Assembly: GCA_035501555.1 (NCBI GenBank)
Contig: DATJWA010000027.1
Span: forward strand, 256,156-320,155
DNA length: 64,000 nt
Direction: 5' to 3'
Source: Thermoplasmata archaeon
Lineage (GTDB): Archaea > Thermoplasmatota > Thermoplasmata > Lutacidiplasmatales > UBA184
The notes under the pieces: generated by a model
The model's database searches: none
What the model was told of the DNA's origin: nothing
What the model saw: only the letters and a program-made list of their open reading frames with translations
In this document: piece by piece, positions 6,438 through 64,000 of the stretch
Numbering within the stretch: the stretch's first letter is position 1
Layout of the letters: each line of letters opens with the position of its first letter
Made by a program: the position numbers and the translations under genes

Positions 6438-6452
6438 CGATGTTCTCCTTCC

Positions 6453-8416: not shown

Positions 8417-8576
8417 GACGCCGGGTTCACGGCCGCCGACGGTATTTGGGGGCGGAGGAACGTGCGGAAACCGCACGGCCCGGCAAAACCGGCGCGCCCG
8501 GGGTCCGTGAGCCCGGACCGTCTCCCAACCAGAACGCCTATGTCGGGGAAGACGACTCCCGCTGCGGGTGTCCGCC

Positions 8577-8774: not shown

Positions 8775-8821
8775 TCGTTCGGACGTGGGCACGGCCGAGG
8801 TCCCCGGCTCGCGGCCCTCGC

Positions 8822-11176: not shown

Positions 11177-11243
11177 GTGGAGCCGGGCCCCCGCCAGCCA
11201 ATACTAAGCCTGCCGAGGGGATGCCGGACCGGAGCCGCACGGA

Positions 11244-36938: not shown

Positions 36939-37194
36939 CCTCGAGTCCACCGGCCGGGATACCGCCCCCTTTCAACGAGCGGGGCCGGCGGAGTCTGTCG
37001 GAGGGGGGCGACGTGATTTTTAAACCCTCCACTTAGGGGTGCCGGGGTTCAGACGAGTTGGGACCGGCACTGGGCGAGCGAGGGCTAACACCCCTGACGA
37101 TCGACGGAGCCGCTCCCGTCTTCCCGGCGGCGCGACGGGGAGCGATCGTCGGCCCGGGGTCGGAGTATTAACGAAGATTTCGGTGGCCTCGGCC

Positions 37195-39893: not shown

Positions 39894-39929
39894 GGGGCTT
39901 AATCTAACCGAAGACGGTTACGCCCTGTG
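39894..39929 (+). promoter_or_regulatory. Conserved paralog promoter block GGGGCTTAATCTAAC upstream of cyclase B.
   Basis: Identical motif and spacing as in the other paralogs. Confidence 0.6.
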
Positions 39930-43217: not shown

Positions 43218-43344
43218 CCACCGATGCTTAGCGTCGAACTTTGAATGTCGGAGCCCGTGACAGGCGAGAGACCACTCCGCTCCGAACCGAGTAGGTGGGT
43301 TGCTCAGGATTTCCTCAATACCGACCGCGTTGGCTCGGCGGGAC

Positions 43345-43385
43345 GTGTCGGAGGGGGACACTACGGAATTCTTCGTATCATCACC
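43345..43385 (+). repeat. tRNA-3'-end-like hairpin repeat.
   Basis: gtgtcggagggggacactacggaattcttcgtatca. Confidence 0.55.
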
Positions 43386-43907
43386 ATACGGCGGGCGGAC
43401 GGCCGCTCCGTCCCTATGGCTCGAAGCAAGAAGGCGGGCGCTCGGGGCCACCCAATCTCAAATGCCCTCGACTTTAGATCTGCGTGATTGAAAGCAGCGC
43501 GGGTTCGCTTCCCACATTCCGGGTTGAGTGACCTTTCCCGGAAGTGTCTTCCAGAATGGCAAAGTCCCCTGTCGCGAAACGTCGCCCCTCTCCGTCACTG
43601 GCCTTAACCTCGAGAGTTTCTCGGAGCACGGAAAATATCTGGCGGGTTGGCGATGGGTGCGGTTGCCCGTACCAACCCACCGGCACCACGAGAAACAGGT
43701 GGCGCTCGGCCTTCATCGGAGGCGAGACGCAGAGGGGAGGCGCTGGTGGGGCGAAATCCACGGAAGAAGTAGTAACCACGACCTCGGCAAAATGGGACTC
43801 GCTTTGCGCGTCCGAGACCAACCGACCCATCGTGATATCCGGACATTGCGGCATGCTATGCTCCGAGCCGATTGTGCTCGACCCGGCAGCGAAGGCGGGC
43901 CAAGAAG

Positions 43908-43947
43908 GTGTCGGAGGGGGGAACTACGAATGGTTCAAATCCCTCAC
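43908..43947 (+). repeat. tRNA-3'-end-like hairpin repeat.
   Basis: ggtgtcggaggggggaactacgaatggttcaaatccctcac. Confidence 0.6.
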
Positions 43948-44026
43948 AGGGCAAATGCGGCCCAGTGGCCACTTTCGACCCGCGAATGAACCCGGTCTGA
44001 GTACGTGGCCAGAGCCCTCCGTGAAG

Positions 44027-44062
44027 GGGTCTTAATCTAACGAATGCCCTTCTCGCGCCGTG
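44027..44062 (+). promoter_or_regulatory. Conserved paralog promoter block GGGGTCTTAATCTAAC upstream of cyclase C.
   Basis: Same motif and spacing. Confidence 0.6.
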
Positions 44063-47000
44063 GCCTCCCGCCGACGACTTGCTGCCATCATGTTCACTGA
44101 CCTCGTGGATTTCTCCGCCCTCGCCCAGCAAGACGAGGCGCTCGCGCTTCGGACCGTGGACGAAATCTCGAGCCTTCTGCGGCCCCTCTTTGCCGCCCAC
44201 GACGGGCGTGAGGTGAAAGCCCTCGGCGATGGATTCCTGGTGGAGTTCGACAGCGCGCTCGACGCGACCGAGTGCTCGATTGAGATTCAGCGTCGTCTGT
44301 TTCACCGAAATCAATCGGCCGGTGTCCGGCCCGCGGAGATGCGGATCGGCATTCACCTCGGAGACGTCGTTCGGAAGGACGGGGACATCCTCGGGGACGC
44401 GGTCAACATCGCCTCGCGGATCGAACCGCTCGCCGAGGCGTCGGGGATCTGCATCAGCGGGCCGGTCTTCGAACAAGTGAGCAACAAGATTCCCTACCTG
44501 TGTGTGCAACTGGACCACGCATTTCTCAAGAACATCGGCACCCCCATCACGGTCTTCAGCGTGGACCTTCCGTGGCACGCTCCCCCGGCCGCGAGGGTCA
44601 CCCCGTGGACCGACCGAACCGCGGAGCTCGGGAGCCTCCGGGAAGCTCTTCGAGGGGCTGCCCACGGCGAGGGAGCCATCATCGCTCTCGGTGGCGAGTC
44701 CGGCATCGGAAAGACCCGACTGGCGGAGGAGGCCGTACGCAAAGCAGAGAGCACGGGAGTTCGAGTTCTTCGAGGGCGGCGGTTCCAGGAGGAGCTCAAC
44801 GCCCCCTATTCCCACTGGGCCCAGGCCGCGCGGTTCTTCGTGCGCGAGGCGCCGCCATCCATGGTCTTCAAGGTCTGTGACGGGTGCCAGCGAGAGGCGA
44901 TAGGGCTCGTTCCCGAACTGTCGGACCGGCTCGGCCCGCAACCTCCGGCCCCCTCGCTAGGACCGAAGCAAACCCGCCTCCGATTCTTCGAAGGGGTCGC
45001 TCGGTTCTTTCAAAACCTTGCCAAAGAAACGCCCCTCGTGCTCCTGCTGGACGACTTCCAATGGGCCGATCCCGACTCGGTCTCGCTCCTCGAGTACTTC
45101 GGTGCCCAAATCAAGGAACGGCCGATTCTCGTGATCCTAACGTATCGAGATACCGAGCTGGACCCCCGGGGAGCCCTCGGAAAGGCACTGTTCGACCTCC
45201 GACGGCATGGGATCCTTCGAGAAATCTCGTTGAAGCGCTTCGACCCAGACAATAGTCGGGACTTGGTCGGGGCAGTCCTCGGGGGGACGACTCCACCCCG
45301 CGACGTGATCGAGCCTCTTCTCGAAAAGACCGGAGGCAATCCCCTCTTCGTCGAGGAGCTGTGCCGGTCTCTCGTAGAGGACCGATCGTTAGTACGCACG
45401 TTCGACGGCTGGCAGGCAAAACCCGACGCACGCATTGAAGTTCCCCCGACGGTTCGGGAGGTGATTCGGCGGCGGGTTGACTGGATCGGCCCCGAGGCCG
45501 AGAGCGTCCTCGCGATTGCATCTGTCTTTGGGAACGAGTTCGAATTCGAGCGCCTCAAGGAAGTGAGTGAGGTCGATTCCGACCGGCTGCTGCTCCTGGT
45601 CGAGGCGATGCTGCGCGCCCGGTTGCTCCGGGAGAAGGAGACCGCGCCCGGGCGGTCGATCTACCAGTTCGGCGACGAGCAGACTCGGGACGTCCTTTAT
45701 GCCGGGCTTTCTCTCGTCCGGCGCCAACGGTACCACCTCAGGGCCGGCCAGGTGCTGGAGCGGGCCTGGGGGAACCTCGCAAATGAGCGCGCGGAGGAGC
45801 TCGCTTACCATTTCCGGCAAGGAAATGCCCCGGACCGGGCGCTGGAGTACTACGTTCGGGCCGGGGACCGCGCCAACCAGGTGTACGCCCGTGAGGACGC
45901 TGCGTCGGCGTATGAGAAGGCGCTCAACCTCCTGGAGGAAGCCATCGCCCACAAGGAGGACGAGCGGGCGCTCCGGGAACGCGCTCTCAGTGTTTCCGGA
46001 CGATTGGGAGATACCCAATGGAACCTCGGTCGGCATTCCGATTCGATTGCGACGTACTTGCGAGGGACCCGGCTTGCCGCTGGACTGGACTCCATTACGC
46101 AGGCCAAGGCCTGGGTCACCCTAGGATGGGGCTACGATGGGAACCACGACTACGACGCTGCGCTCGCGAGCTGTGACGCGGCCGAGCGGGCACTCGGAGC
46201 TCCCCCACCCGCCCTAGAAGCAGACCCCTGGTCGGCGGAGTGGATCGGGATTCAGCGGCTCCGGATGGACGTGTACTACTGGAGCCCGGACCGGCACAGA
46301 AACGCCGCGCGTTACGCGGAGACGCTCGCTCGCATTCGGCCGATCCTCGAGCACAGCCCCAACCCCCTCGACCGGGTCCGCCTCTACCATGACCTACGGA
46401 GCCTGGACTGGATGCAGAATCGCGGTTGGATTTCCGACGAGGGTCTGGCGTACGACCGTATGGCCCTCGCGGCCGCGAATGAATCCGGAGACCCCGAGTG
46501 GATCAACGGCTCCGTCTTCTGCGTGGGCTTTAGTCACTTCTGGCGCGGTGAAGTGGAACAGGCTCGCGCACATCTCACTACATCCCTCCGAGAATCCGAG
46601 AGGATGGGTCTGACTACCGAACGCTCCCGGGCGATCACCTACCTGATGGCGACGGAGCGACGGTCGGGCGACGTGATGGCCGCCGAACGACTCATCCCCG
46701 GGGTCCTCTCGGCTGCCGAGGCTGCCGAACTTCCGGAGTACGTGGCGATGGCCCTCGCAACGGCCTCCTGGGTGGCATGGCGCGCGGGCGACCTGAATAG
46801 GGCCGCCGCGGAGGGGGAAAGGGCGCTCAAGATCTGGCACGAGATCCCGAACTCCTACCCCTGCGACTGGATGGCGATCTGGCCGCTCATCGGAGTGGCT
46901 ATCCGGCGGGGAGAGATTCCGCGGGCGGTCCACCTCGCACGGGGGTTGCTCCCCCTGTCACAAAATCCCCTTCCCCCCGAGCTCGAAGGGCTGGTCCGCC

Positions 47001-47095
47001 AAGCGATTGCCAGCGAGGAGGTCGGTGACACGAAAGCCGCCGCACGGTCTGTCGAGATGGCGTTGCAAAGAGCGCGCGGACTGAACTATGCATAG
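44060..47095 (+). CDS. Class III cyclase (CHD) – STAND/AAA ATPase – TPR protein (paralog C).
   Basis: GTG start. RRLAAIMFTDLVDFS, Walker A LGGESGIGKTRL. 1011 aa. Confidence 0.9.
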   Translation: MASRRRLAAIMFTDLVDFSALAQQDEALALRTVDEISSLLRPLFAAHDGREVKALGDGFLVEFDSALDATECSIEIQRRLFHRNQSAGVRPAEMRIGIHLGDVVRKDGDILGDAVNIASRIEPLAEASGICISGPVFEQVSNKIPYLCVQLDHAFLKNIGTPITVFSVDLPWHAPPAARVTPWTDRTAELGSLREALRGAAHGEGAIIALGGESGIGKTRLAEEAVRKAESTGVRVLRGRRFQEELNAPYSHWAQAARFFVREAPPSMVFKVCDGCQREAIGLVPELSDRLGPQPPAPSLGPKQTRLRFFEGVARFFQNLAKETPLVLLLDDFQWADPDSVSLLEYFGAQIKERPILVILTYRDTELDPRGALGKALFDLRRHGILREISLKRFDPDNSRDLVGAVLGGTTPPRDVIEPLLEKTGGNPLFVEELCRSLVEDRSLVRTFDGWQAKPDARIEVPPTVREVIRRRVDWIGPEAESVLAIASVFGNEFEFERLKEVSEVDSDRLLLLVEAMLRARLLREKETAPGRSIYQFGDEQTRDVLYAGLSLVRRQRYHLRAGQVLERAWGNLANERAEELAYHFRQGNAPDRALEYYVRAGDRANQVYAREDAASAYEKALNLLEEAIAHKEDERALRERALSVSGRLGDTQWNLGRHSDSIATYLRGTRLAAGLDSITQAKAWVTLGWGYDGNHDYDAALASCDAAERALGAPPPALEADPWSAEWIGIQRLRMDVYYWSPDRHRNAARYAETLARIRPILEHSPNPLDRVRLYHDLRSLDWMQNRGWISDEGLAYDRMALAAANESGDPEWINGSVFCVGFSHFWRGEVEQARAHLTTSLRESERMGLTTERSRAITYLMATERRSGDVMAAERLIPGVLSAAEAAELPEYVAMALATASWVAWRAGDLNRAAAEGERALKIWHEIPNSYPCDWMAIWPLIGVAIRRGEIPRAVHLARGLLPLSQNPLPPELEGLVRQAIASEEVGDTKAAARSVEMALQRARGLNYA

Positions 47096-47414: not shown

Positions 47415-47450
47415 GGAGTTTAATCTAACTGAAGCAGCTCTCGACTCGTG
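47415..47450 (+). promoter_or_regulatory. Conserved paralog promoter block GGGAGTTTAATCTAAC upstream of cyclase D.
   Basis: Same motif and spacing. Confidence 0.6.
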
Positions 47451-49364
47451 GCCTCCACTCGGCGCCTCTCCGCCATCATGTTTACGGACATGGTTGGTTC
47501 GACGGCATCGGCCCAGGCCAACGAGGCCCAGGCCCTCAAGCTCAGGGACGAGCAGGCGGCTCTCCTCCGGCCTCTATTCGCCGTTCATCAGGGGCGCGAA
47601 GTCAAGTCGATGGGCGACGGGTTTCTCACGGAGTTCGACAGTGCGCTCCGGGCCGTTCAGTGCTCCATCGACATCCAGCAACATCTGCACGAGCGAAATT
47701 CGCAACCCGGGGTGGCCCCGATTCGGCTTCGAATCGGGATCCACCTCGGCGATGTCGAGCAGCGCGAGAGCGACATTTTTGGAGACGCGGTGAACATCGC
47801 CTCACGAATCGAATCGATCGCCGAGCCCAGCGGCATTTGTGTCTCAGGAGCCGTCCACGAGCAGGTACGGAACAAGATTGCCGACCGGTTCGAGAAGCTC
47901 CCGCCCACGCTGCTCAAGGGATTGGAACGCTCGATGGACCTGTACCGGGTTCTCCTGCCCTGGACCCGTGGCGAAGCCCCCGTGAGGGGCACCGGACCTC
48001 CACGACTGGCGGTGCTTCCGTTCTCCAACATCAGCCCGGACCTGAAGGACGAGTACTTCGCAGACGGTCTTACGGAGGAACTGATCACCGTCCTCTCGCA
48101 GTTGCGCGAGATTCGAGTCATTGCCCGAACCTCAGTCGCCCAGTACAAATCGACGAACAAGTCGGCGGCCCAGATCGGGGCCGAGTTGGGCGTCGATGCT
48201 ATTTTGGAGGGCAGCGTCAGAAAGTCAGGGGATGATCTCCGTATCACCGTCCAACTCATCGATGGTGCGACGCAGGAGCACACGTGGGCGAACACCTACG
48301 ACCGGAAGCTCGAGAAAGTATTCGCGGTCCAGGCAGAGATTGCGAAGCAGGTGGCGGAAGGGCTCAGAATCAAGCTTCGGCCAACGGAGACGGCGCGGCT
48401 CGAGAGTCAATCCCCGGTGATGCCGGATTCCTACCTCGCGTATCTTAGAGGCCGTTCCCTACTGGTATCACAATGGTCCGACAAGGGCTTCAGAGCGGCA
48501 AAACAACACTTCGAGGTTGCGCTTTCAATAGACGAGACAAACGCGAGGGCCCACTCCGGATTGGCGGATGCACTCAAGCATATCGCGTGGGCTGAGAACG
48601 AACCTCTAACCAACGACCAGGAGTCCGTGGTTAGGGACCACGTCGCTCGGGCCCTGCAACTCGACCCCAACCTTGCGGAGGCTCACTGCTCGCTCGGACT
48701 GATTCTCTGGGACGAGAATGATCACCGGGGCGCCGCGAAGGAGATGGAACTCGCCCTGTCCATCAATCCGAGTTTGTCCTACGCGCACTTCGAGTACGCG
48801 CTCATCCTCCTGTGCTTTGCCCGATCCGAGGACGGCCTCCGAGAGCTCGCGCTGGCCGAGGAACTGGACCCGATCTCGGTGCAGTACGCGGATTGGCACG
48901 CGTTTTTGCTCATCATGCTTCGAAGACTCGACGAGGCGGCGGTCAGACTGGACAGGCTCAAGGAGTTGGATAAAGCCGGCATCGTCTACAGCGGCACACT
49001 CAGCTACTATCTGTGGGCGAGGGGCGATTTCGATGGCGCCCTTCAGGCATGTGACCGACTCGCAGAGCTCAGAGGCGAACCCGCATGGACCGGCCGCGTC
49101 ATGTCACTTTCGAGTATGGGCAAGAAAGAGGAGGCTTGGAAGTTAATCCGGGAAGCGGAAGCATTGCCGAAAAAGCCACTCCTAGAAGAACGGGCGATGT
49201 GGCGGGCGTTTGTCGGTGATGTCGATGGCTGTTTCCAGTACCTGGATGAGTCATTCGAGAGTCACCAGCTCACCACTCAGGTCTGGATGTTCGAACCGGC
49301 GCTCGGACCAATTCGGTCTGACCCCAGGTTCGCTCAACTCCTGAAGAAGCTGAATCTCGCGTAA
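47448..49364 (+). CDS. Class III cyclase (CHD) – TolB-N-like – TPR protein (paralog D, C-terminal subtype 2).
   Basis: GTG start. Cyclase motifs. LAVLPFSNISPDLKDEYFADGLTEE segment. TPR repeats. Confidence 0.9.
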   Translation: MASTRRLSAIMFTDMVGSTASAQANEAQALKLRDEQAALLRPLFAVHQGREVKSMGDGFLTEFDSALRAVQCSIDIQQHLHERNSQPGVAPIRLRIGIHLGDVEQRESDIFGDAVNIASRIESIAEPSGICVSGAVHEQVRNKIADRFEKLPPTLLKGLERSMDLYRVLLPWTRGEAPVRGTGPPRLAVLPFSNISPDLKDEYFADGLTEELITVLSQLREIRVIARTSVAQYKSTNKSAAQIGAELGVDAILEGSVRKSGDDLRITVQLIDGATQEHTWANTYDRKLEKVFAVQAEIAKQVAEGLRIKLRPTETARLESQSPVMPDSYLAYLRGRSLLVSQWSDKGFRAAKQHFEVALSIDETNARAHSGLADALKHIAWAENEPLTNDQESVVRDHVARALQLDPNLAEAHCSLGLILWDENDHRGAAKEMELALSINPSLSYAHFEYALILLCFARSEDGLRELALAEELDPISVQYADWHAFLLIMLRRLDEAAVRLDRLKELDKAGIVYSGTLSYYLWARGDFDGALQACDRLAELRGEPAWTGRVMSLSSMGKKEEAWKLIREAEALPKKPLLEERAMWRAFVGDVDGCFQYLDESFESHQLTTQVWMFEPALGPIRSDPRFAQLLKKLNLA

Positions 49365-49403
49365 CACGACCCGATTGTGCCCCCGTTCGGCAAGCGACCC
49401 TTT

Positions 49404-49440
49404 TTCGGAAGGGGGGTTGACGGGTTCAAATCCCCGCCAG
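49404..49440 (+). repeat. Divergent T-arm-like element (GGGTTCAAATCCCCGCC) after a T-run. It lies between convergent genes D and H.
   Basis: ctttttcggaaggggggttgacgggttcaaatccccgccagagagg. It carries a GTTCAAATCC T-loop signature on the plus strand. Confidence 0.4.
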
Positions 49441-49461
49441 AGAGGAGGCGGGGTCCAGGAA

Positions 49462-50814
49462 TCACCGCGATACCGCGAGGAACGTCTCCCAGTTCCCCTC
49501 CACGCCCTTGAACCGGCGGGACCCCCGTTCCTCAAACCGCACCTCTGAGCCTACGGATAGGTCACGGACAGTTCGTGAGGTCACGATCTCGCCGCCGCCA
49601 GCGGAATCGCAGATCCGGGACGCAAGGTGGACCGCCATCCCGACGACGTCGTTGTCTGCCACGAGGCACTCACCGGTGTGAACTCCGGCCCGAAGCTCGA
49701 GGCCCCGTTGTTTCGCCTGGTCCCGAGCGGATTGTGCGAAGCGTACCGCCCGGGTCGGTCCGTCGAAGGTGGCGAGGAACCCATCGCCAGTCGTCTTCAC
49801 CAATCGACCCCGGAAGCGGGTGATTTCGGCGCGGGACCCAGCGAGGAAGGACTCCAGAATCTCCCTCCAACTGTGATCACCCAGCCGGGAGGCGAGTCGG
49901 GTCGAATCGACGATGTCGGCGAAGACTACGGTCTTGAGTACTCGGTCCTCGTCAGGCAAACCCGATGGTAGGCTGGTGAGGAACGATTTCTGGGCACGGA
50001 GGGAGGCGGCGCTCGCTTCGGGGTTCGCCCAGAAGAAGTGGTCTCGTCCCGGAATGGAAACAATCCGAGACCCAGCCACGCGGGAGGCGACGTAATCCGC
50101 GTTCTCCTCACGAACGGCCCTGTCGCCCGGGCATTTCAGGATGAGCGTCGGGACGTGAACCGCCGGAAGAGTCGCCCGAACGTCAATTTCAAGGTTCATC
50201 CGCGCGAGGGAGGCGGCCGCGGAGGGCGACGAACCAAACCGGATCACCCGCCCGTACCATCGTTTGAAATCGGGATCCGCTACCCGGCTCGGGGCCTGTG
50301 TCGACAAAAGTCGGTCGATGTGCGGAGGCGTCCCCCAATCCTCGTCCGAAAGTCGGATGGACTCCTCCACCTCTTCGCGCGTGGGGGCGAAGGCGAAGTC
50401 GGGAGCCCACGCACCTCGGACCGTCGGAGCGATAAGGATGAGGCCCAAGGTTCGTTCCGGGTAGGTCGCCGCGAACAGGAGGGCCATCGCCGCCGTGTCG
50501 GTGGCTCCAAAAATCACCGCACGATGACTCTTCGCCGCGTCCATGACGGCCCGGAGATCATCCATCCGGTCCTCGAGCGTCGGCGTCCCAACCGCTCGGT
50601 CCGAGAGACCCACACCGCGCTTGTCCCACAGGATCACCCGGGCGGCGCTCCCTAGATCCCGGAAGTATCCCGCGACCGCTGGCTGCTCCCAGACGAGTTC
50701 GAGATGAGAGATTGCCGTACGACCGTAGACCAGGTCGACGGGACCCGCCCCGAACACCTCGTAGGCGATGCGAAGGTCGCCGCTACGGGCGTACCGGACT
50801 TCGGGAACCTCCAT
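49462..50814 (-). CDS. Alpha/beta-hydrolase – class III cyclase fusion (LipJ/Rv1900c-like, paralog H).
   Basis: N-terminal alpha/beta-hydrolase fold. C-terminal CHD (FADIVDSTRLASRLGD…KTTGDGFLATF…GECLVADNDVVGMAVHLASRI). Confidence 0.9.
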   Translation of the reverse strand: MEVPEVRYARSGDLRIAYEVFGAGPVDLVYGRTAISHLELVWEQPAVAGYFRDLGSAARVILWDKRGVGLSDRAVGTPTLEDRMDDLRAVMDAAKSHRAVIFGATDTAAMALLFAATYPERTLGLILIAPTVRGAWAPDFAFAPTREEVEESIRLSDEDWGTPPHIDRLLSTQAPSRVADPDFKRWYGRVIRFGSSPSAAASLARMNLEIDVRATLPAVHVPTLILKCPGDRAVREENADYVASRVAGSRIVSIPGRDHFFWANPEASAASLRAQKSFLTSLPSGLPDEDRVLKTVVFADIVDSTRLASRLGDHSWREILESFLAGSRAEITRFRGRLVKTTGDGFLATFDGPTRAVRFAQSARDQAKQRGLELRAGVHTGECLVADNDVVGMAVHLASRICDSAGGGEIVTSRTVRDLSVGSEVRFEERGSRRFKGVEGNWETFLAVSR

Positions 50815-50925
50815 CGCCCACCGGCCGGAATCGAACGCGAACGGGGTATATCGACTGTCCGGGGGGCCGATGCGAAGAGACCTTTGGCCCCCGTGCGAAG
50901 ACGACCCCTCGGAAATCTCAAAAGA

Positions 50926-50964
50926 GGTCGGAGGGGGGAACTCCCAGTTTGTTCAAGTCCCCCA
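50926..50964 (+). repeat. tRNA-3'-end-like hairpin repeat.
   Basis: ggtcggaggggggaactcccagtttgttcaagtcccccac. Confidence 0.55.
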
Positions 50965-50975
50965 CCGAAGTACGG

Positions 50976-51713
50976 TCACTCAATCTCCTTCGCTGACCCG
51001 TCGCGCGCGCGGAAGGAATTCCATCCATCGGTAGCGTCCAAACTGAGCGTCCCCTTCAACAGCGCTCGCTTCGTACCGTTCGAGACGGCGAACTCGACCT
51101 CCAGCGGGTGTGAGAGGGCCTCGTGACCGGCCGCTTGGAGGAGACCGTCCCGGATCGCCGGATTGCGGGTCCAATGAATCTCAGTGAAGGCGCCGGCCAA
51201 AAGCGCCGGCTCGTAGGCCACCTCCACCCCTCCCACTTTGGCCCGAAGTTCCCGCACGACCTCAGCGGAACAGTTGTAGAGGAACAATCGATGGGAAGCG
51301 CGCCGAGAGCTCGCGCGAGCGATGTACGAGGATTCGACGGCCTCGCGTTGCTTCTCGCCCATCGGCCAGAGGAAGGTGTAGGCGAGTCGTGTCCGGGGGG
51401 ATCGTCCGCCCCCACGCGACCCACTCCGCCATCGCTGCACCTGGCGCAAGCGGGCGCGAAGGTTCGGAGTGTCGGCTTTCCAGCTACCGTGGGAGGCCGG
51501 CGCCCATTCGGCGAGCCCGCGTTCGATGTCGCTCGCGGACCAGTCGGGATGCTGCCGCTCAAGAACAAAGACAAGTCGCTCTAACTCCGCCCGGTCCGCC
51601 TTCGTCACGGCCCGCCCTGCGACAGTTGTCGCACTCCTTCTGGAGCGCCGGAACGCGTTCCCTCCGATAAGAAGCCCGTTGGTCGCGCGACAGCCGGACC
51701 GAAACGTCGACAC
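50976..51713 (-). CDS. Hypothetical protein (weak support).
   Basis: ORF with partly protein-like composition in its C-terminal half. No recognisable domain. Confidence 0.3.
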   Translation of the reverse strand: MSTFRSGCRATNGLLIGGNAFRRSRRSATTVAGRAVTKADRAELERLVFVLERQHPDWSASDIERGLAEWAPASHGSWKADTPNLRARLRQVQRWRSGSRGGGRSPRTRLAYTFLWPMGEKQREAVESSYIARASSRRASHRLFLYNCSAEVVRELRAKVGGVEVAYEPALLAGAFTEIHWTRNPAIRDGLLQAAGHEALSHPLEVEFAVSNGTKRALLKGTLSLDATDGWNSFRARDGSAKEIE

Positions 51714-52197
51714 AATTGGTTGTTGTGGCTAGAATGCCACGAAGAGAGAGAACATGGAGGCGAAAGCGGTGGTGGACGCGGCGGGGGCGATCGTGGGACT
51801 GTGCCGAATGGGCGTGGTGGCGGCGATGACCGACACCCTCCGGGGGACGGAGGTAGTTTTGGGCATGGCCCGAGGATTCCTGGCAACGACGATCGGGGGG
51901 AGATGTGGTCCGGCCAGCTCCTGCCCGAGATTCCCGTATTAAACGACCGAGACTCCCTCGTCGGTCCGGGGCCCCTCGCCGAAGCGAGGGGCCCCGATGC
52001 AGCCGGTCGACGTACTCGAGGAAGGGAGAGGCGTACAGCCGGCGGCGCTAGGGCGCTTAATGCTGTGAAGGCTATTCATGGGATGTGCTCCCGACTCCCG
52101 CTCCCGGTCGATTGGCCGCCTTCCTCGGGCGTCGAGCCTGGCGGTTTCCGGCGTCCGATGACTTCCCCTCCCTGATTGCTCCTCCGGCGGTTGGGTC

Positions 52198-54660
52198 ATG
52201 CGAGACCCCGTGTGGTTCTCGGTTCTCCATCGCCGGACCTTGTCGCGCCCGTCCAAACGCATGAGGCCCGCAGGTCAACAGTCAGACTCGGCGAACGGCA
52301 CGACTTCGTCCACGACCCGCATTGAAGGGATCTCTTCCCCGTCGGCCCCGCCCGCCGATATCGGTGTCCCGACCCGGACGGTCGGCCGGGAAGGCGAAAT
52401 CCGCACAATCGCCGACTTTCTTGGACGAATTGAAAGGAGGTCGGAGAGCGTTCTTCTCTTCTCCGGAGAAGCCGGGGTCGGTAAAACACGTCTCCTCCGT
52501 GAGGCCGAGTCGAGGGCCACGAAGATCGGAATGACGGTCCTCTCGGTCGATTGTGGTGCCCTGGACCACGGGGTCGCCTACGGTCCATGGGTCGAATTGC
52601 TTCGGCACTACCTTGAAACGACTCCTCGGAAGCAGGCGTATTCAACGGTCCAGCCGCACCTGCGTGCCCTCAGCTCCATCGCGCCGGGGTTGAACGACCT
52701 TGTGTGGCTCTTTGACCCGAGCCACAGGTCCGGCACCGACGGGCGTGAGACTCGGGTCGAACCGATTGGCCGTTTCTTTGTCGCCATCGCGGACGAACGT
52801 CCGCTGCTGCTCGCGATAGACGACCTCGGCAGTGCGGACAACTCTTCGCTAGAGCTCTTGGGGAGTGTCGCGCGCTTGGGTCGACCGTTCCCCCTCGGAA
52901 TCGTGGGCACCTATCGCGACACGCAACCGGAGGAGAACAAACCGCTGCGGCACCTGCTGTCGAACCTCGAGAGTCAGAAGTCTTGCACCACCGTGACTGT
53001 CCGCCCCCTCGACCGAGATCACCTGGGTGTGCTCATCGGCGAGGTGCTCCAAACGAAGGAGGTCCCGACCGCGTTGCGGGATGCCGTGTTCGAGAAGTCC
53101 CGAGGCAACCCGTACTATGCCGCGGAGATTGCCCAATGGCTGCTGGAGGCGGGTACCCTCCGTGCGACGTCCGCGGGCCGGTCGTGGGACTCGGACTCGA
53201 AATTGGAGCTACCCGCCCCCTTCGAGCGAGCGATCGAGGTCCGTCTCGGTCGGACCCCGAGCCTGAACCTCCCCGTCGGGAGTATCCAGGATCGACTTGC
53301 GATTCTGCCGTTTGCCAACCTCAGTCCGGACCCGGGTGACGCGTATTTCGCCGACGGACTCACCGAGGAGATGATTGGCGTGGTCTCCCAGGTGAAGGGG
53401 TTCCAGGTGATTGCCCGCACCTCAGTGATGCCCTACAAATCTGCCTCGAAAGGGGTCTTCCAGATCGGGCTCGAACTGGGCGTCTCATCGATCCTCGAAG
53501 GAAGCGTTCGTCGAGCCGGAGATCGGTTGCGGATCGCGGTGCAATTGATCGACGTACGATCCCAGGCCCACCTCTGGGCGCACACCTTCGAGCGCGCGCT
53601 CGGCGACGTGTTTGCCGTGCAGTCCGAGATCGCGAGAAAGGTGGCGAATGCACTCAAGATCAAATTGGGCCCGGCCGAGAGGAGTCGGCTGGAATCCAGA
53701 CGCTCGGTGCGGCCGGATTCGTACCTTGCCTACCTGAGGGGCCGGATCTCGTTGCATACCCATACCCAGGCATCCTTGGAGACCGCGAAGAACGAATTCG
53801 AACGGTCCATTTCGCTCGACCCGATGAACGCCGCCGCTCATGCCGGACTCGCCGCTGTAACGGAGATGATAGCGTGGTGGTTCCCAGGACCAGGCTTCAA
53901 GAGATCGACCCGAGGGAGCCGGGGATTGGCGGCGCGGGCGCTCGACCTCGACCCAGACCTCGCGGAGGCGCATGAGGCGGTCGCGTTGGTCCTGGAAGCC
54001 GAGTACGACTATCGGGGGGCGGAAAAGGAATTCAAGTTGGCTCTGGAGCTGAGTCCGAGCTACTCGATCGCGCACCATAACTACGCCTCTATTCTGGAGG
54101 AGATGGGACGGCCCGAAGAAGCGCTCTTGCAGTACTCACTCGCCGAGGGAGCCGACCCTCTTTGGGCGAGGAACCTCTTCTGGTTCGCCACCTTACTCGT
54201 CTGGTCGGGTCGGCCGGACGAAGCTCTCGTGAAGATCCGAGCGCTCGGCCAACTGGAACCCGACGGGGTGGACTATCACGCCGCCCTCACCACCTACTAC
54301 CTTTCCCAGTCCAAACCCCAGGAAGCTCTCGACGAGCTTCGTAAGGTCGTCGAGCTGGAGCCAGAACCTCGTCGCAAGTCGGTCTATCGGGCTCGCTACC
54401 TCGCGCTTTCGGGCAGGAAGAAGGAGGCCGAGGCCCAACTTCGGCACGAAGAATCGTTGCCCGTAGTTGGCGTCATCACGTGGGCCATCGCGCTGACGTA
54501 CGCCGAAATGGGGAACCTCGATGACTGTTTTCGTCTGATGGAGCAGGCCGCCGACGCTGGGTACGTTGCGTTCCAGCAACCGAGGCTGAATCCGATTTAC
54601 GAAAACGTCCGAACCGACCCGAGACTCCAGCAATTGTTAGCAAAGTTGGGCATCCCATGA
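52198..54660 (+). CDS. STAND/AAA ATPase – TolB-N-like – TPR protein lacking the cyclase domain (paralog E).
   Basis: Walker A FSGEAGVGKTRL. ILPFANLSPDPGDAYFADGLTEE segment. TPR repeats. No CHD and no TTAATCTAAC promoter block. Start uncertain: 52198 or 52261. Confidence 0.8.
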   Translation: MRDPVWFSVLHRRTLSRPSKRMRPAGQQSDSANGTTSSTTRIEGISSPSAPPADIGVPTRTVGREGEIRTIADFLGRIERRSESVLLFSGEAGVGKTRLLREAESRATKIGMTVLSVDCGALDHGVAYGPWVELLRHYLETTPRKQAYSTVQPHLRALSSIAPGLNDLVWLFDPSHRSGTDGRETRVEPIGRFFVAIADERPLLLAIDDLGSADNSSLELLGSVARLGRPFPLGIVGTYRDTQPEENKPLRHLLSNLESQKSCTTVTVRPLDRDHLGVLIGEVLQTKEVPTALRDAVFEKSRGNPYYAAEIAQWLLEAGTLRATSAGRSWDSDSKLELPAPFERAIEVRLGRTPSLNLPVGSIQDRLAILPFANLSPDPGDAYFADGLTEEMIGVVSQVKGFQVIARTSVMPYKSASKGVFQIGLELGVSSILEGSVRRAGDRLRIAVQLIDVRSQAHLWAHTFERALGDVFAVQSEIARKVANALKIKLGPAERSRLESRRSVRPDSYLAYLRGRISLHTHTQASLETAKNEFERSISLDPMNAAAHAGLAAVTEMIAWWFPGPGFKRSTRGSRGLAARALDLDPDLAEAHEAVALVLEAEYDYRGAEKEFKLALELSPSYSIAHHNYASILEEMGRPEEALLQYSLAEGADPLWARNLFWFATLLVWSGRPDEALVKIRALGQLEPDGVDYHAALTTYYLSQSKPQEALDELRKVVELEPEPRRKSVYRARYLALSGRKKEAEAQLRHEESLPVVGVITWAIALTYAEMGNLDDCFRLMEQAADAGYVAFQQPRLNPIYENVRTDPRLQQLLAKLGIP

Positions 54661-54745
54661 CAATCCGTTGATTTCGACCTCCCGTCGACGGTGAACCCCC
54701 CCTTTCGGAGAGGAGACCGGGATTGCGAAGGGCGTTGCACGATGA

Positions 54746-54786
54746 ATGTCGGAGGGGGACATTACTGAATTGTTCATATCCCCGAC
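54746..54786 (+). repeat. tRNA-3'-end-like hairpin repeat.
   Basis: atgtcggagggggacattactgaattgttcatatccccgac. Confidence 0.65.
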
Positions 54787-54927
54787 TTGGGGGTCAGCGA
54801 GAAAGCACGATTGCGAGACCACCGGTAGTCGGGTTATCGCGGTTACCGGACTACCCGGAGCGGCTGGGCTCCCGACACGCCAGATGCCCACAGTCGACCA
54901 GGTAAATCGCGGGCTTTTCCGCGAACC

Positions 54928-54963
54928 GGGGCTTAATCTAACGAATACCGTTTCCGGGCCATG
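54928..54963 (+). promoter_or_regulatory. Conserved paralog promoter block GGGGCTTAATCTAAC upstream of cyclase F.
   Basis: Same motif and spacing. This gene uses an ATG start. Confidence 0.6.
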
Positions 54964-56892
54964 GCCTCCAGTCGCCGACTCGCCGCCATCATGTTCACGG
55001 ACATGGTCGGCTCCACGGCTTCAGCGCAGGCCAATGAGGCAAGGGCCCTCCGGTTGCGGGACGAGCAGGCCGGACTGGTCCGTCCCCTCTTCGCCGCCCA
55101 TCAAGGGCGCGAAGTCAAGTCAATGGGCGATGGCTTCCTAGCCGAGTTCGATAGCGCACTCCGAGCCGTGCAGTGTGCGATTGACATCCAACAGCATTTG
55201 CACGAACGGAATTCCCAGCCAGGCGTGGCACCGATTCAACTTCGTATTGGAGTTCATTTGGGGGACGTCGAAGAACGCGAGCGCGACATCTTCGGCGACG
55301 CAGTCAACATCGCCTCACGCATCGAGCCGCTCGCGCCCCCCGGAGGCGTCTGCATCTCGGGAGAGGTATCCAGTCAGATCAGAAACAAGATCCCGAACCG
55401 GCTCGAGAAACTGCCGCCGACGGCGCTGAAGGGGTTGCAGGCATCGATCGACATCTATCAAGTGGTATTGCCTTGGACGGAAGCGGGCGGCGCTGGGTTG
55501 TCCGAAGTCAATCGGAACCGGATCGCGATCCTTCCCCTCGCCAACTTCAGTCAAGCCGCCGGCGACGAGTACTTCGCGGACGGGATGACAGACGAGATCA
55601 TTTCGACGGTGTCAGGGATCAGCGGCCTCAGCGTGATCTCGCGGACATCTGTAATGAGATACAAACAGACCTCCAAGAGCATGACCGAGATCGGACGCGA
55701 ACTAAAGGCAGGAAAGCTCCTGGAAGGGAGCGTTCGGAAGTCCGGAAATCGGGTGCGGATCACCGTCCAACTGATCGACGCCGAGAGCGACGCCCATCTC
55801 TGGGCCCAGAGCTACGACGGGAGCATCGACGACGTCTTCGAGACCCAGTCCGAAATCGCTCGCAAGATTGCAGAGGCGCTGAAGCTACCCTCGCCTCGGG
55901 GCGGAGGCCGGGCTGAGAGTCCTGAGGTCTACCCGCTCTGCCTCCAGGCCCGCACATTGTGGCATAAGTTCACCCGCGAAGCGAACGAGCAGGCGATGCT
56001 CCTGTTGGAAGGCGCCCTAAAGATCGATCCCGAGTCCGCTCGGGCGACGGCCGGGCTCGCGGATTGTTACGTTACCGCAGCTAACGCCGATTGGGTTGAG
56101 AAGGACGAAGGTTACGGCAAAGCTAGAACGCTGGCCAGACGTGCGCTCGAGCAGGACGCCTCGCTGCCCGAGGCCCATTTCGCCCTAGGCCATGTGTTGA
56201 TAGTGGACGACTACCCCGCAGCCGAGGCCGAACTCAAAAAAGCGCTCACGCTGAACCCCAGTCACGCGGACGCCCACGAGTGGTACGCGGAAATCCTGCG
56301 AGGCATGGGTCGAGTGGCTGAGGCGACGCGGGAAGTCGAGAGGGCCCTCGAACTGGACCCGCTCCCGCCCAGTCGGGCGTTTTTCTTGGCGACCCAATAC
56401 TACTTCGAAGGGCGTAATGACGAGGCGATCGCAGTCTGCAACAAGATCATCCAGACGGAGCCGGGGTATGCCTGGGCGTATGCCGGGCGGGCCGTGCTGA
56501 CTTCCATCAACGGAGAGAGGGAGAGAGCCTACCGGGATTTGCAAACCTACAGACGACTACAGCGGGACGAGATCGCGTACAAGAGCCTCCAGGCTCGGAT
56601 CGAAGCTCACCTGGGAAACAAGGAAGAAGCGTCACGCCTCATCGATGAGGTGCTCGCGCTCGAGGCAGCGAGTGAATCCCCGAATGCGCGAAGCGAAACT
56701 TACCAGCTATCCTTTGCGTATGCCCTCATCGATGATCGAGCGAGATTCTTTCCGTTCGTGGAAGGTCTGATCGACCACAATAAGATGGATCCCGGTGAAC
56801 TTCGGGACCCCGCGTACCAAAACATGGCGAGTGATCTTCGATTCGCATCCCTCCTCCAGAAACTCCGCAAATCCTACGGCATTTCCAACTGA
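54961..56892 (+). CDS. Class III cyclase (CHD) – TolB-N-like – TPR protein (paralog F; mosaic of a D-like CHD and an A-like C-terminus).
   Basis: The CHD is ~85% identical to paralog D. The C-terminal 450 aa are ~80% identical to paralog A. Confidence 0.9.
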   Translation: MASSRRLAAIMFTDMVGSTASAQANEARALRLRDEQAGLVRPLFAAHQGREVKSMGDGFLAEFDSALRAVQCAIDIQQHLHERNSQPGVAPIQLRIGVHLGDVEERERDIFGDAVNIASRIEPLAPPGGVCISGEVSSQIRNKIPNRLEKLPPTALKGLQASIDIYQVVLPWTEAGGAGLSEVNRNRIAILPLANFSQAAGDEYFADGMTDEIISTVSGISGLSVISRTSVMRYKQTSKSMTEIGRELKAGKLLEGSVRKSGNRVRITVQLIDAESDAHLWAQSYDGSIDDVFETQSEIARKIAEALKLPSPRGGGRAESPEVYPLCLQARTLWHKFTREANEQAMLLLEGALKIDPESARATAGLADCYVTAANADWVEKDEGYGKARTLARRALEQDASLPEAHFALGHVLIVDDYPAAEAELKKALTLNPSHADAHEWYAEILRGMGRVAEATREVERALELDPLPPSRAFFLATQYYFEGRNDEAIAVCNKIIQTEPGYAWAYAGRAVLTSINGERERAYRDLQTYRRLQRDEIAYKSLQARIEAHLGNKEEASRLIDEVLALEAASESPNARSETYQLSFAYALIDDRARFFPFVEGLIDHNKMDPGELRDPAYQNMASDLRFASLLQKLRKSYGISN

Positions 56893-56929
56893 GATCTCGT
56901 TCGGTGGTTCGGCGCCCTGGCTTGGAAGG

Positions 56930-56970
56930 GTGTCGGAGGGGGACACTACTGAATTCTTCATATCCCCGAC
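56930..56970 (+). repeat. tRNA-3'-end-like hairpin repeat.
   Basis: gtgtcggagggggacactactgaattcttcatatccccgac. Confidence 0.65.
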
Positions 56971-57114
56971 AACCCCCGTTTCTCGATGAAAGCCCGATTA
57001 CGCAACTACCTGTAGTCGGGAAAGTGCGATTGTGAGACTACACGAAGCGCTCGGCCTTCTAGGGGTTTGGATACATCAAATCAACTGGGCGGAACAAGAC
57101 CTCCGCGTTGAGCC

Positions 57115-57150
57115 GGGGCTTAATCTAACAAGTGCCGTTCCCGGGGAGTG
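57115..57150 (+). promoter_or_regulatory. Conserved paralog promoter block GGGGCTTAATCTAAC upstream of cyclase G.
   Basis: Same motif and spacing. Confidence 0.6.
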
Positions 57151-59202: not shown

Positions 59203-59304
59203 TGTCGGAGGGGGGATTTGAACCCCCGACCCCAGGATCTCTCCCGGGACGCCCGCGGCGGCCCGCTATGAGTCCCGTGCTCTACCAGGCTGAGCCACTC
59301 CGAC
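59203..59304 (-). tRNA. tRNA with CAU anticodon (elongator Met or Ile2). It contains a ~16-nt intron in the anticodon loop and an unusually long region before the T-arm, possibly a second intron.
   Basis: Minus-strand read: GTCGGAG-TG-GCTCAGCCTGGTAGAGC-A-CGGGA-CTCATA[GCGGGCCGCCGCGGGC]G-TCCCG-…-GGGGGTTCAAATCCCCC-CTCCGAC-A. Canonical acceptor, D-arm and T-arm are present. No CCA is encoded. Confidence 0.6.
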
Positions 59305-59330
59305 AGGGATCGGAGGCACCACGGCCGCAC

Positions 59331-60059
59331 CTACGCGCCCGCGTCCTCGTCGCCGCCCGCGGTCGCCGCGACCGGAGGCGGGCCCGACGGACCTTCCGGG
59401 GCCGGGCTCTCGGTCGGGGGCGGGCTGGTGGGGATTTCCTCCGCGATCGCCCCGAGGACCTCGGAGCGGCGGATCTCGATCTTCTTCAGCGGGTACAGGG
59501 TGCGGACCCCGTGAGCCAGGATCTTCGACAGTTCCCCCTGGATCATCTCGCGGACGAACTCGGGGGCGGTCCGCTGGGCCGCCTCCTCCCGGAGGATGTC
59601 GACCATCTTGTGCCGCAGTTCCGCGCGCAGCCGCGTCTGGAGGCGTTGCTCGCCGACCGCGACCGGCTTGAGCACGATCTCGATCCCGTCCTTCGTCGTC
59701 ACGTGGAGCGAGGTGTCGATCTTGGAGCGCTTGCGACGGGCGAGGCGTCGGACGTAATCGGAGGTAAGGTCGTGGCCGATGAACCGGGTCTCGGCGACCC
59801 CGTCCCCGCCCACGCGCTCCACGCGGAACCGCATCTTGATGTGGGCCTTGCCGGCGTCTTGGCCCCCCGAGAGCTCGGGGACCGTCATCTCGAGCGTCCG
59901 GCCGATCAACTGCTCGGGTTCGGTCGCCACGGTCTCCCCGAGGTCGGCGTGCTGGAAGAGGCCCGGCGCACGGACCTTGTAAAAGTGCTTGGCCCTCCAC
60001 TTGTCCTTGACGGTCCGGGCGACCGTGGTCTTCTTCCCGGACGTCTCCTTCTCGGCCAT
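59331..60059 (-). CDS. rps3ae: 30S ribosomal protein S3Ae (S1e family).
   Basis: Internal ATG (MAEKETSGKKTTVARTVKDKWRAKHFYKVRAP…). The upstream TTG-initiated part of the ORF is spurious. Confidence 0.85.
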   Translation of the reverse strand: MAEKETSGKKTTVARTVKDKWRAKHFYKVRAPGLFQHADLGETVATEPEQLIGRTLEMTVPELSGGQDAGKAHIKMRFRVERVGGDGVAETRFIGHDLTSDYVRRLARRKRSKIDTSLHVTTKDGIEIVLKPVAVGEQRLQTRLRAELRHKMVDILREEAAQRTAPEFVREMIQGELSKILAHGVRTLYPLKKIEIRRSEVLGAIAEEIPTSPPPTESPAPEGPSGPPPVAATAGGDEDAGA

Positions 60060-60190
60060 GGGTCGCGGGGCCGCCGAGCGGGGTACCCTACTTAACCGTG
60101 TCGAGGCGGCGGAGGTCGATTCCCTGACGGAGGCTCCCGCGGAGCGCTCCCGTTGGCAAAGTACATAACCCGAGCCCAACTCCGCGCGCC

Positions 60191-61720: not shown

Positions 61721-61727
61721 CGACGCC

Positions 61728-63521: not shown

Positions 63522-63586
63522 CCCCCGTTGCCGCTGGCGCCGAAGGTTTATCTTGCGAACCCGCGGTCGTTCGCCCGGTGGACACC

Positions 63587-63994: not shown

Positions 63995-64000
63995 GAGGGG

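Follow-up and report, generated by a model that had tools for sequence, protein, structure and literature searches.

Why should an archaeon carry, in the midst of a row of predicted cyclase genes, a gene with the domain arrangement of the mycobacterial fusion protein LipJ (Rv1900c), and did that gene arrive together with the row? The question is raised by a 64,000-nucleotide stretch (here called the window, to which our coordinates refer) of contig DATJWA010000027.1 from a Thermoplasmata archaeon (assembly GCA_035501555.1). An earlier note, made from the sequence alone, had taken the LipJ-like gene and some multidomain neighbours resembling Rv0386 to be an actinobacterial-type signalling kit that was acquired en bloc and then expanded locally. 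The explanation we favour, and consider probable though well short of certain, is that the gene encodes a soluble LipJ/Rv1900c-type adenylyl cyclase with a regulatory hydrolase-like domain, and that it is a long-standing member of an archaeal branch of this family around which the array genes were gained or lost.

The LipJ-like open reading frame (ORF) is a real coding gene. In the ORF listing of the window a single frame of 450 amino acids (AAs) with an ATG start lies exactly at 49462-50814 on the minus strand and carries VVFADIVDSTRL and VKTTGDGFLATF; an identical 450-residue protein is present on public Thermoplasmata contigs, and a protein search finds more than 100 clusters of full-length homologues. 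Two Pfam hydrolase profiles, Hydrolase_4 (42 bits, cut-off 27) and Abhydrolase_6, match above their curated cut-offs at about AAs 41-269, and Guanylate_cyc (PF00211), the class III cyclase homology domain (CHD), matches AAs 295-446 with 43 bits against a cut-off of 21.9. An AlphaFold2 model built from 98 homologues is confident throughout (pLDDT 92.7, pTM 0.92). Foldseek superimposes its C-terminal half on the Rv1900c CHD (PDB 1YBU) with a template modelling (TM) score of 0.95, a root mean square deviation of 1.1 Å and 44% identity, and finds that the N-terminal half resembles lid-bearing α/β hydrolases such as KAI2/HTL, an aryl esterase and bromoperoxidase (TM about 0.8). No clear membrane segment was seen, the highest 19-residue Kyte-Doolittle mean being 1.6, in a core strand. 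Both halves evolve under purifying selection: in comparisons with orthologues of 82-88% identity the ratio of non-synonymous to synonymous divergence (dN/dS) is 0.09-0.15 for the hydrolase half and 0.125-0.128 for the CHD. The earlier note's description of a 450-AA minus-strand ORF with an N-terminal hydrolase and a C-terminal CHD is thus borne out by the ORF, its motifs, Pfam and the model alike.

The likeness to LipJ, which the same note had pointed out, also holds up at the level of architecture. AAs 2-444 are collinear with positions 6-446 of the 449 in the NCBIfam model NF058673.1, "bifunctional lipase/adenylate cyclase LipJ" (E 1.9e-102), and the best solved relative of the CHD is Rv1900c. 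The score of 343 bits lies far below the curated equivalog cut-off of 800 bits, however, and the protein is therefore a homologue within the fusion family and not a LipJ orthologue. It shares with Rv1900c/LipJ of M. tuberculosis (PDB 1YBT, 1YBU) the domain order, a length of about 450 AAs and a His in place of the transition-state Asn; it differs in having a canonical Lys at the substrate-Lys position (VKTTGDG), where Rv1900c has Asn (VNTAGDG), and in its host, an archaeon and not a mycobacterium. A search of a 5.8-billion-protein set with the LipJ CHD retrieved nothing but short pieces of CHD from Mycobacterium, the best at 87%, and in no case the whole of LipJ.

A phmmer search aligns the CHD residue by residue with the Rv1900c chain of 1YBT (E 3e-37). 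D300 and D344 are the two metal-binding Asp residues, aligned to the Asp of FTDIV and of GDGF in Rv1900c; K340 and D389 form the Lys/Asp pair that selects adenine; R400 is at the position of the transition-state Arg, and H396 occupies that of the transition-state Asn, as does a His in the Rv1900c chain. Rv1900c, with this His, is reported to be an active cyclase (Sinha and coworkers, 2005). In a family alignment of 347 sequences (118 from an archaeal clade described below and 229 bacterial relatives) the metal-binding Asp pair is kept in 118/118 members of the archaeal clade, the selecting Lys in 118/118 and the selecting Asp in 116/118, and the whole hexad DKDDHR is found in 111 of the 118 as against 66 of the 229 bacterial sequences. 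Since all of the catalytic positions are present, with the Lys/Asp pair among them, the protein is most likely an adenylyl cyclase, and it probably makes cyclic AMP (cAMP). Two CHDs would pair head to tail, as they do in bacterial class III enzymes, and each active site would then lie across the dimer interface, with D300/D344 holding the metals, K340/D389 contacting adenine and H396/R400 serving the transition state, so that ATP would be converted to cAMP and pyrophosphate. Bacterial class III cyclases work as homodimers with interface active sites, and the Rv1900c dimer is asymmetric (PMC4174876). Among the bacterial relatives (loci L003-L082 and proteins P0121-P0270) the selecting pair is often charge-swapped, with Asp at the Lys site and Lys at the Asp site; 24 of these sequences have the hexad DDDKHR and others have further D/K variants, a co-varying swap.

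The hydrolase half matches the esterase 4UHC and KAI2-type proteins in phmmer searches, and Thr105 aligns with the catalytic Ser of both in the HMMER alignments. In the model strand 99-104 passes through an elbow at Thr105 into helix 106-117, and the elbow motif (G103-A-T105-D-T107) is without a Ser, Cys or Asp nucleophile. The Thr would set the protein apart from LipJ as well if LipJ has the Ser typical of hydrolases. Across the archaeal clade the nucleophile column holds Thr in 39 sequences, Ser in 34, Leu in 22, Arg in 13 and Gln, Tyr or Ala in a few, the triad Asp being found in 79/118 and the His in 109/118; in the bacterial relatives the column holds Ser in 153 of 229, with the full Ser-Asp-His triad in 139 and Ser-Glu-His in another 10. 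Because purifying selection is equal on the two halves, the Ser-less hydrolase domain is evidently maintained and not decaying, and because the domain is kept while sister branches carry Leu, Arg or Ala at the nucleophile, ligand binding or regulation is a likelier role for it than hydrolysis. The KAI2/D14/RsbQ-type receptor hydrolases are, as a functional analogy, a precedent for an α/β-hydrolase domain that acts as a small-molecule sensor. KAI2, D14 and HTL (RsbQ-like) rank with the nearest matches of the N-terminal half, both in sequence and among solved structures, with a TM score of about 0.8, but they are only 18-22% identical to it, keep the catalytic Ser and signal through partner proteins instead of a fused cyclase, and we do not claim that it belongs with them. 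We suggest that this domain, in which the fold, lid, acid and His are kept and Thr replaces Ser, would be a ligand-binding or regulatory module and not an esterase; the repeated loss of the Ser with retention of the domain would then be a clean natural example of an enzyme domain becoming a probable sensor.

Where, then, does the gene belong? A search with the full-length protein returned 7047 proteins at E <= 1e-5; the top 120 all have the same architecture (48-100% identity), and the organism names among them are Thermoplasmata only. An exhaustive search of representatives gave 3736 below 1e-30, the best of them 48% identical. A scan of GTDB genomes for T[VI][LM]F[TAV]D[IV]V[DGE]S, a pattern that the protein's own TVVF does not fit and that samples the bacterial side and not the close archaeal relatives, gave at least 80 named loci of 43-49% identity; among the matches listed about 50 are from Actinomycetota (Acidimicrobiia, Solirubrobacterales, Gaiellaceae) and 16 from Proteobacteria, and the remaining ones are from Chloroflexota, Gemmatimonadales, Armatimonadetes, Myxococcales, Methylomirabilota and one contig binned as Nitrososphaerales. 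Such bacterial proteins, from soil Actinomycetota, Proteobacteria, Chloroflexota and other groups (PDB 3MR7, titled [quoted passage not shown], is an example), have the same architecture and are the nearest non-archaeal relatives. They mostly keep Ser-Asp-His, and their substrate pair varies (K/D, D/K, N/D); in the archaeal clade this pair is fixed as K/D and the Ser is frequently lost. Judged from these alignments, the gene falls into an archaeal sub-family of the well-known LipJ/Rv1900c architecture, one in which the cyclase catalytic set is fixed and the hydrolase domain often lacks its Ser.

In neighbour-joining (NJ) trees of the 347 sequences the 118 top hits, which are 48-100% identical to the protein and stand for at least 118 clusters at the 90% level, form one clade, recovered in 50/50 bootstraps with the full length, 42/50 with the hydrolase half and 23/50 with the CHD; the two halves therefore share one history. 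The clade is nested among bacterial sequences. Its sister in the observed tree is an Actinomycetota sequence (L009), and in 60 bootstraps the sister was unlabelled in 25, Actinomycetota in 15, Proteobacteria in 9, the Nitrososphaerales-labelled contig alone or with Proteobacteria in 8 and something else in 3. The bacterial relatives span many phyla, and the sister group is unstable in the bootstraps. As the family is overwhelmingly bacterial and the archaeal clade lies inside it, an ancient bacterial origin of the archaeal branch is plausible. The members of the clade themselves sit in archaeal surroundings: all nine sampled sub-branches are tied to Thermoplasmata, either by archaeal marker genes nearby (Thermopsin in L083, Spt4 and Rpb7-type RpoE in L089, LonB in L090, HTH_10 in L092, S3Ae and fibrillarin in L093) or by flanking genes 51-73% identical to those of Thermoplasmata loci. 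The latter is the case for the basal branches L098, L099 and L091, which are without markers; flanking genes of three bacterial control loci are only about 35% identical to Thermoplasmata loci.

In the window the LipJ-like gene is convergent with a CHD-TPR gene (47448-49364, plus strand) across a gap of 97 nt, and the neighbourhood contains six plus-strand CHD genes (33300, 39927, 44060, 47448, 54961, 57148) and one AAA_16-TPR gene (52198); the gene thus does lie convergently inside a cyclase array, as had been noted. This linkage is not conserved, whether the window gained segments or its relatives lost them. In the locus L093, which carries an 87% identical orthologue, the order is VWA, PrkA-type AAA, S3Ae, tRNA-Met, LipJ-like, with no array genes between; by blastn, L093 1795-6578 corresponds to window 63930-59192 and L093 6628-8044 to window 50865-49449, and an 8.3-kb segment of the window (table 1) is missing. 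In L092, an NCBI Thermoplasmata assembly with an 89% identical orthologue, the LipJ-like gene is followed by DSBA/redoxin genes that correspond to window 35872-36957 (85% nucleotide identity), and a 12.5-kb segment is missing. Neighbourhoods differ further among L083, L085, L087, L089, L090 and L092: L085 has no nearby cyclases, L087 and L089 have one CHD-TPR gene a few kb off, and L083 has a second hydrolase-CHD gene. Nor does the LipJ-like CHD resemble those of the array: its identity to the six is 29-37%, and theirs to one another is 54-59%; duplications within the array join 33300 to 54961 (71%), 47448 to 57148 (52%) and 39927 to 44060 (50%).

Composition and divergence complete this picture. 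GC content is 0.70-0.73 in the flanks (1-26000 and 59300-64000) and 0.60-0.65 across about 27-59 kb, and GC at third codon positions (GC3) is 0.70-0.81 inside about 33000-59200 (array genes 0.72-0.79) as against 0.88-0.94 in the flanking genes. With a GC3 of 0.75 the LipJ-like gene falls below both its orthologue in L093 (0.885) and the core genes on its flanks (0.93). L093 is like the window flanks (GC 0.725, GC3 0.89-0.96); the L092 region has a GC of 0.64 and a GC3 of 0.65-0.83 throughout, core haem genes included, and it is with L092 that the window LipJ-like and DSBA/redoxin genes share their 85% nucleotide identity. In other relatives, too, LipJ-like and further accessory genes have a lower GC3 than core genes. 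Compared with L093, the LipJ-like gene of the window has a synonymous divergence (dS) of 0.55, close to the 0.62-0.64 of S3Ae, PrkA and VWA. The simplest reading of these values would be a long residence in the archaeal lineage, the present block having possibly been exchanged among Thermoplasmata relatives of different GC.

The synteny breaks against L093 and L092 both coincide with copies of a repeat that matches the end of the tRNA-Met gene. Read on the minus strand, the core of the repeat, D7, is TCCCCCCTCCGAC, identical to the 13 nt immediately ahead of the final A in the tRNA-Met gene. The whole is an imperfect palindrome of about 40 nt (TGTCGGAGGGGGGAAC...GTTCAAATCCCC; consensus TGTCGGAGGGGG(G/A)(A/C)A...TTC.AATCCCC) that begins, over 13-14 nt, with the tRNA-Met 3' end in reverse complement. 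There are 11 copies of the motif where 0.94 would be expected; ten are on the plus strand, and these ten lie within 35.7-59.2 kb. A repeat search adds a plus-strand copy at 33202. Between 33 and 59 kb hardly an intergenic gap is without the repeat, which keeps to one orientation. Three-way alignment at the L093 junction shows TCCCCCCTCCGAC upstream of the window gene and then sequence homologous to the L093 tRNA-gene spacer, and the intact tRNA gene (59203-59304) is adjoined by a second, similar copy of the L093-type spacer. The left junction with L092 falls again at a repeat core, at 36997. Six copies in L092 itself sit between unrelated genes (glyoxalase, methyltransferase, DinB and others), and a profile search found no copies in the loci of relatives other than L092. 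The repeat looks like an att-type or cassette recombination site, and in the explanation we favour the LipJ-like gene would have been inherited vertically in the Thermoplasmata branch, with its usual place beside tRNA-Met and S3Ae, while unrelated cyclase and STAND-type genes were gained (or were lost in relatives) on both sides of it by recombination at these short copies of the tRNA 3' end. A mobile element with such a repeat was sought in viral contigs, and the idea was rejected: the final 22 nt of the tRNA hit nothing but a tRNA-Leu of bacterial type, and the three hits of the 16-nt core, all to contigs of low GC, were due to chance.

The pattern invites comparison with integrons, and clusters of attC sites without an integrase (CALINs) have been reported in Archaea (PMC9668308). 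Imperfect palindromes in one orientation stand between genes in both, and gene content differs at the repeats among close relatives. The repeat described here, however, has a length of about 40 nt and opens with the final 13-14 nt of a tRNA gene, the "cassettes" measure 2-4 kb and carry a promoter-like motif of their own, and the window ORFs scanned include no integrase; we make no claim of membership. The repeat also does not fit what we take to be the R''/R' consensus of attC. A bolder proposal, which we regard as speculative and a good deal less likely to be right than wrong, is that the LipJ-like gene is a conserved member of a tRNA-Met-anchored cassette array of one soil Thermoplasmata lineage, with a palindrome ahead of every cassette, a shuffling platform distinct from integrons that assembled a battery for cAMP signalling, with the LipJ-like protein as a ligand-gated cyclase under a non-catalytic sensor. 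Were it correct, the protein would be among the first concrete candidates for regulated archaeal cAMP synthesis. This tRNA-anchored pattern of repeats and cassettes is more unusual than the LipJ-like gene itself.

These results bear directly on the idea of a single actinobacterial block, in which the LipJ-like gene and the Rv0386-like cyclases would have arrived together before a local expansion. The LipJ-like architecture, the preponderance of Actinomycetota (about 50) among the at least 80 GTDB loci, the L009 sister in the observed NJ tree, the lower GC3 of 33-59 kb relative to its flanks and the recent duplicates in the array (33300 and 54961) would all suit it. But the best homologues make up a large Thermoplasmata clade, and Actinomycetota are its sister in only 15 of 60 bootstraps; the LipJ equivalog score is 343 and not 800; and the L093 orthologue stands beside S3Ae and tRNA-Met without any array, L092 has other neighbours, and dS matches that of core genes, which argues against joint arrival. 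A CHD only 29-37% identical to those of the array, which agree with each other at 54-59%, is not a product of the local expansion. Likeness to Rv0386-type cyclases belongs to the neighbours at 39927-43217 and 44060-47095 (CHD, AAA_16, TPR) and not to the LipJ-like gene; their CHDs are only 32-34% identical to its CHD, a profile scan detected in them no LuxR-type HTH, which sets them apart from the Rv0386 type, and the best named homologues of 44060 are Thermoplasmata proteins and not actinobacterial ones. The low GC3 of the block, together with the 85% nucleotide identity, points to a lower-GC Thermoplasmata relative, L092. Solirubrobacterales and Gaiellaceae are high-GC bacteria, and such donors would not explain the drop in GC3. 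We therefore set the actinobacterial block aside as very improbable; archaeal best homologues are, moreover, the outcome that the earlier note itself had named as refuting it. Bacterial contamination, by mis-binning or a chimeric contig, is still harder to credit: the family is mostly bacterial and the window comes from a metagenome-assembled genome, but the gene is linked to S3Ae and the intron-containing tRNA gene, at a distance within 250 bp in L093 and within 8.5 kb in the window, and independent assemblies (ENA, Logan, JGI, NCBI) carry it or an orthologue in archaeal surroundings, with marker genes from some hundreds of bases to a few kb away. Being physically linked on more than one independent contig, the gene is no contaminant, and the archaeal host that had been supposed is confirmed by S3Ae, the tRNA and an archaeal-type GAPDH gene, all on the contig that carries the LipJ-like gene.

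As to function, the protein might be truly bifunctional, an active esterase or lipase (with Thr105 or some other nucleophile) as well as an adenylyl cyclase. The NCBIfam name says as much, LipJ has been placed among characterised esterases (PMC10865251), and here Asp231 and His259 are kept, Thr105 is conserved in its sub-branch and the hydrolase half is under purifying selection. Sister sub-branches, however, carry the non-nucleophiles Leu, Arg, Ala, Gln and Tyr at this position and yet conserve the domain, so its conserved role needs no catalysis, and the G-A-T-D-T-A elbow also lacks the second small residue of G-x-S-x-G. To our knowledge Thr is not an established α/β-hydrolase nucleophile, and we judge bifunctionality to be unlikely, though less so than the last alternative, that the CHD makes some other cyclic nucleotide in a Pycsar-like defence system or is an inactive scaffold. 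That alternative could draw on the variable, island-like block with its STAND-type AAA_16-TPR proteins, on the His in place of the transition-state Asn and on PADLOC matches to PycC, of which the best has an E of 3.5e-7 at 28 bits. These matches (18-28 bits) cover about 70 residues of the shared CHD core and fall far below those to adenylyl cyclases, the Lys/Asp pair is invariant in the archaeal clade (but for the two sequences without the Asp) with the metal Asp pair and the Arg kept, no effector gene is adjacent, and the L093 orthologue lies outside any island context; such a role is distinctly improbable, and as PADLOC gave weak PycC matches only, we rejected the defence-cyclase reading.

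Several points nevertheless weigh against an adenylyl cyclase with a sensor domain that was long resident in archaea. The transition-state Asn is replaced (H396), and we know of no biochemistry for any member of the archaeal clade. No gene for a cAMP receptor or phosphodiesterase was seen within the 64-kb window in profile scans of its ORFs, and no recombinase or integrase was found among the window ORFs scanned. Thr is conserved throughout the gene's own sub-branch (39 sequences), which leaves room for a catalytic or ligand-contacting role, and LipJ is listed as an esterase (PMC10865251). The trees are by NJ only, the bacterial sample of at least 80 loci was drawn with a pattern without TVVF and is non-exhaustive, and the archaeal origin of most members of the clade is extrapolated from nine sampled contexts. 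Finally, the lower GC3 may mean that the present allele came by recombination from a lower-GC Thermoplasmata relative and not by strict vertical descent.

The adenylyl cyclase reading gives the gene a modest interest as a candidate archaeal cAMP synthase. Archaea contain cAMP, yet according to a 2023 review none of their proteins had been characterised as making, degrading or binding it, and archaeal "class IV cyclase" annotations are triphosphatases (PMC10249747); our literature search found no paper on Thermoplasmata cyclases. A diversified Thermoplasmata clade under purifying selection, with a near-invariant cyclase catalytic set, would therefore be a directly testable candidate. There is a lesson for annotation as well, in that "LipJ-like" describes an architecture here and not a mycobacterial origin or a lipase function.

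Table 1. Coordinates of the LipJ-like gene, its domains and the features around it (window positions unless another locus is named)
Feature	Position	Strand	Evidence
LipJ-like gene, 450 AAs, α/β-hydrolase fold plus class III CHD	49462..50814	-	ORF, Pfam, NCBIfam, AlphaFold2
α/β-hydrolase-fold half, AAs 1-285, with helical lid (helices AAs ~146-218)	49960..50814	-	Pfam, phmmer, Foldseek
Thr105 codon ACC at nucleophile elbow, G-A-T-D-T-A where hydrolases have G-x-S-x-G	50500..50502	-	alignment, model
Retained triad acid and base: Asp231 (codon 50122-50124), His259 (codon 50038-50040)	50038..50124	-	alignment to 4UHC
Class III CHD, AAs 290-446, with D300, K340, D344, D389, H396, R400	49477..49947	-	Pfam, phmmer, Foldseek
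Putative TATA-box-like GATATAC, ~35 nt upstream of ATG	50846..50852	-	sequence; promoter role inferred
GC-rich hairpin CCCCGCC/GGCGGGG directly 3' of stop codon, then ATTT on transcript	49432..49453	-	sequence, fold
Repeat copy D7 upstream of LipJ-like gene, junction of 8.3-kb segment	50926..50965	+	repeat search, motif count, three-way junction alignment
Repeat positions in the window	33202, 35686, 36997, 39713, 43346, 43910, 47240, ~49395 (degenerate), 50926, 54747, 56931, ~59110 (degenerate)		
tRNA end itself as repeat position	59204		
Repeat copies in L092 (L092 positions)	996-1040, 4096-4134, 4721-4763, 6401-6443, 8817-8856, 9848-9889		repeat-profile search
8.3-kb segment between LipJ-like gene and tRNA, absent in L093	50941..59203	+	blastn synteny, junction alignment
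Contents of 8.3-kb segment	orf245 50976-51713 (-), AAA_16-TPR 52198-54660, CHD-TPR 54961-56892, CHD-TPR 57148-59073; D7 copies 54747, 56931		
12.5-kb segment downstream of LipJ-like gene, absent in L092	36997..49459	+	blastn synteny, junction alignment
Contents of 12.5-kb segment	methyltransferase, AHSA1-like, RibD_C, CHD-AAA_16-TPR 39927-43217 and 44060-47095, CHD-TPR 47448-49364		
tRNA-Met(CAU) with intron, anchor of variable block	59203..59304	-	Rfam 57 bits, ARAGORN intron mode
Ribosomal protein S3Ae (archaeal/eukaryotic), conserved neighbour	59331..60059	-	Pfam 187 bits; 77% identical to L093 orthologue

Some details of the locus remain to be added. The tRNA-Met(CAU) gene was missed by ARAGORN at its default settings and found by Rfam and by the intron option. 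The D7 copies within the 12.5-kb segment are those at 36997, 39713, 43346, 43910, 47240 and, degenerate, about 49395. Upstream of the LipJ-like gene the TATA-like GATATAC and a block, AGTCGATATA(C/T)CCCGT, are also conserved upstream of the L093 orthologue, and the hairpin after the stop codon of the window gene, in the 97-nt convergent spacer, is a possible terminator; folding energies of the D7 repeats and of the convergent spacer were no better than those of shuffled sequences (z-score not significant).

Between the LipJ-like gene and the rest of the 8.3-kb segment lies orf245 (50976-51713, minus strand, 245 AAs), upstream of and co-oriented with the LipJ-like gene at a gap of 161 nt, although gene callers differ on its length (245 or 128 AAs). 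Neither Pfam nor NCBIfam nor PADLOC gives a confident match for it, and its absence from L093 and L092 makes it part of the variable segment. The AAA_16-TPR protein encoded at 52198-54660 (plus strand) is 38-45% identical to the CHD-TPR paralogues over its C-terminal 455 or so AAs (a LAILPF(A/S)N(L/I)SPDP... module and TPR), and has an AAA_16 NTPase where the paralogues have the cyclase domain, an N-terminal module swap within the array. A hidden CHD in this protein was considered and rejected: the BLAST extension over AAs 217-365 shows no real identity, and homology begins at about AA 365.

Elsewhere in the family, L083 (a 686-kb contig) carries two hydrolase-CHD genes in tandem, 7768-9051 (427 AAs) and 10001-11353 (450 AAs), a local duplication of the LipJ-like gene with a stand-alone α/β hydrolase and a TetR gene just upstream. 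The Nitrososphaerales-binned match in the GTDB scan, at 4208-5512 of L056, is a 44% identical hydrolase-CHD gene on a contig of 5.9 kb, and a CHD-AAA_16-TPR homologue (P0512) is named Thaumarchaeota; LipJ-like and CHD-AAA_16-TPR cyclases may thus occur in other soil archaea, or else these contigs may be mis-binned. Among soil archaea, the Nitrososphaeraceae are on record as having class III cyclases (PMC13577086).

Outside the repeat-bounded block, in the high-GC flank of the window, a plus-strand gene at 12812-15184 (GC3 0.91) encodes an AAA_16/MalT-like TPR (STAND-type) protein without a cyclase domain; its identity to the CHD-AAA_16-TPR proteins of the array, over their STAND part, is 28-29%. 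Within the array a motif, GGGGCTTAATCTAAC, is conserved about 25 nt upstream of the start codons of 33300, 39927, 47448, 54961 and 57148, and its position suggests that GGGGCTTAATCTAAC is a BRE/TATA promoter for leaderless or short-leader mRNAs, so that these cassettes would each bring an archaeal promoter of their own.

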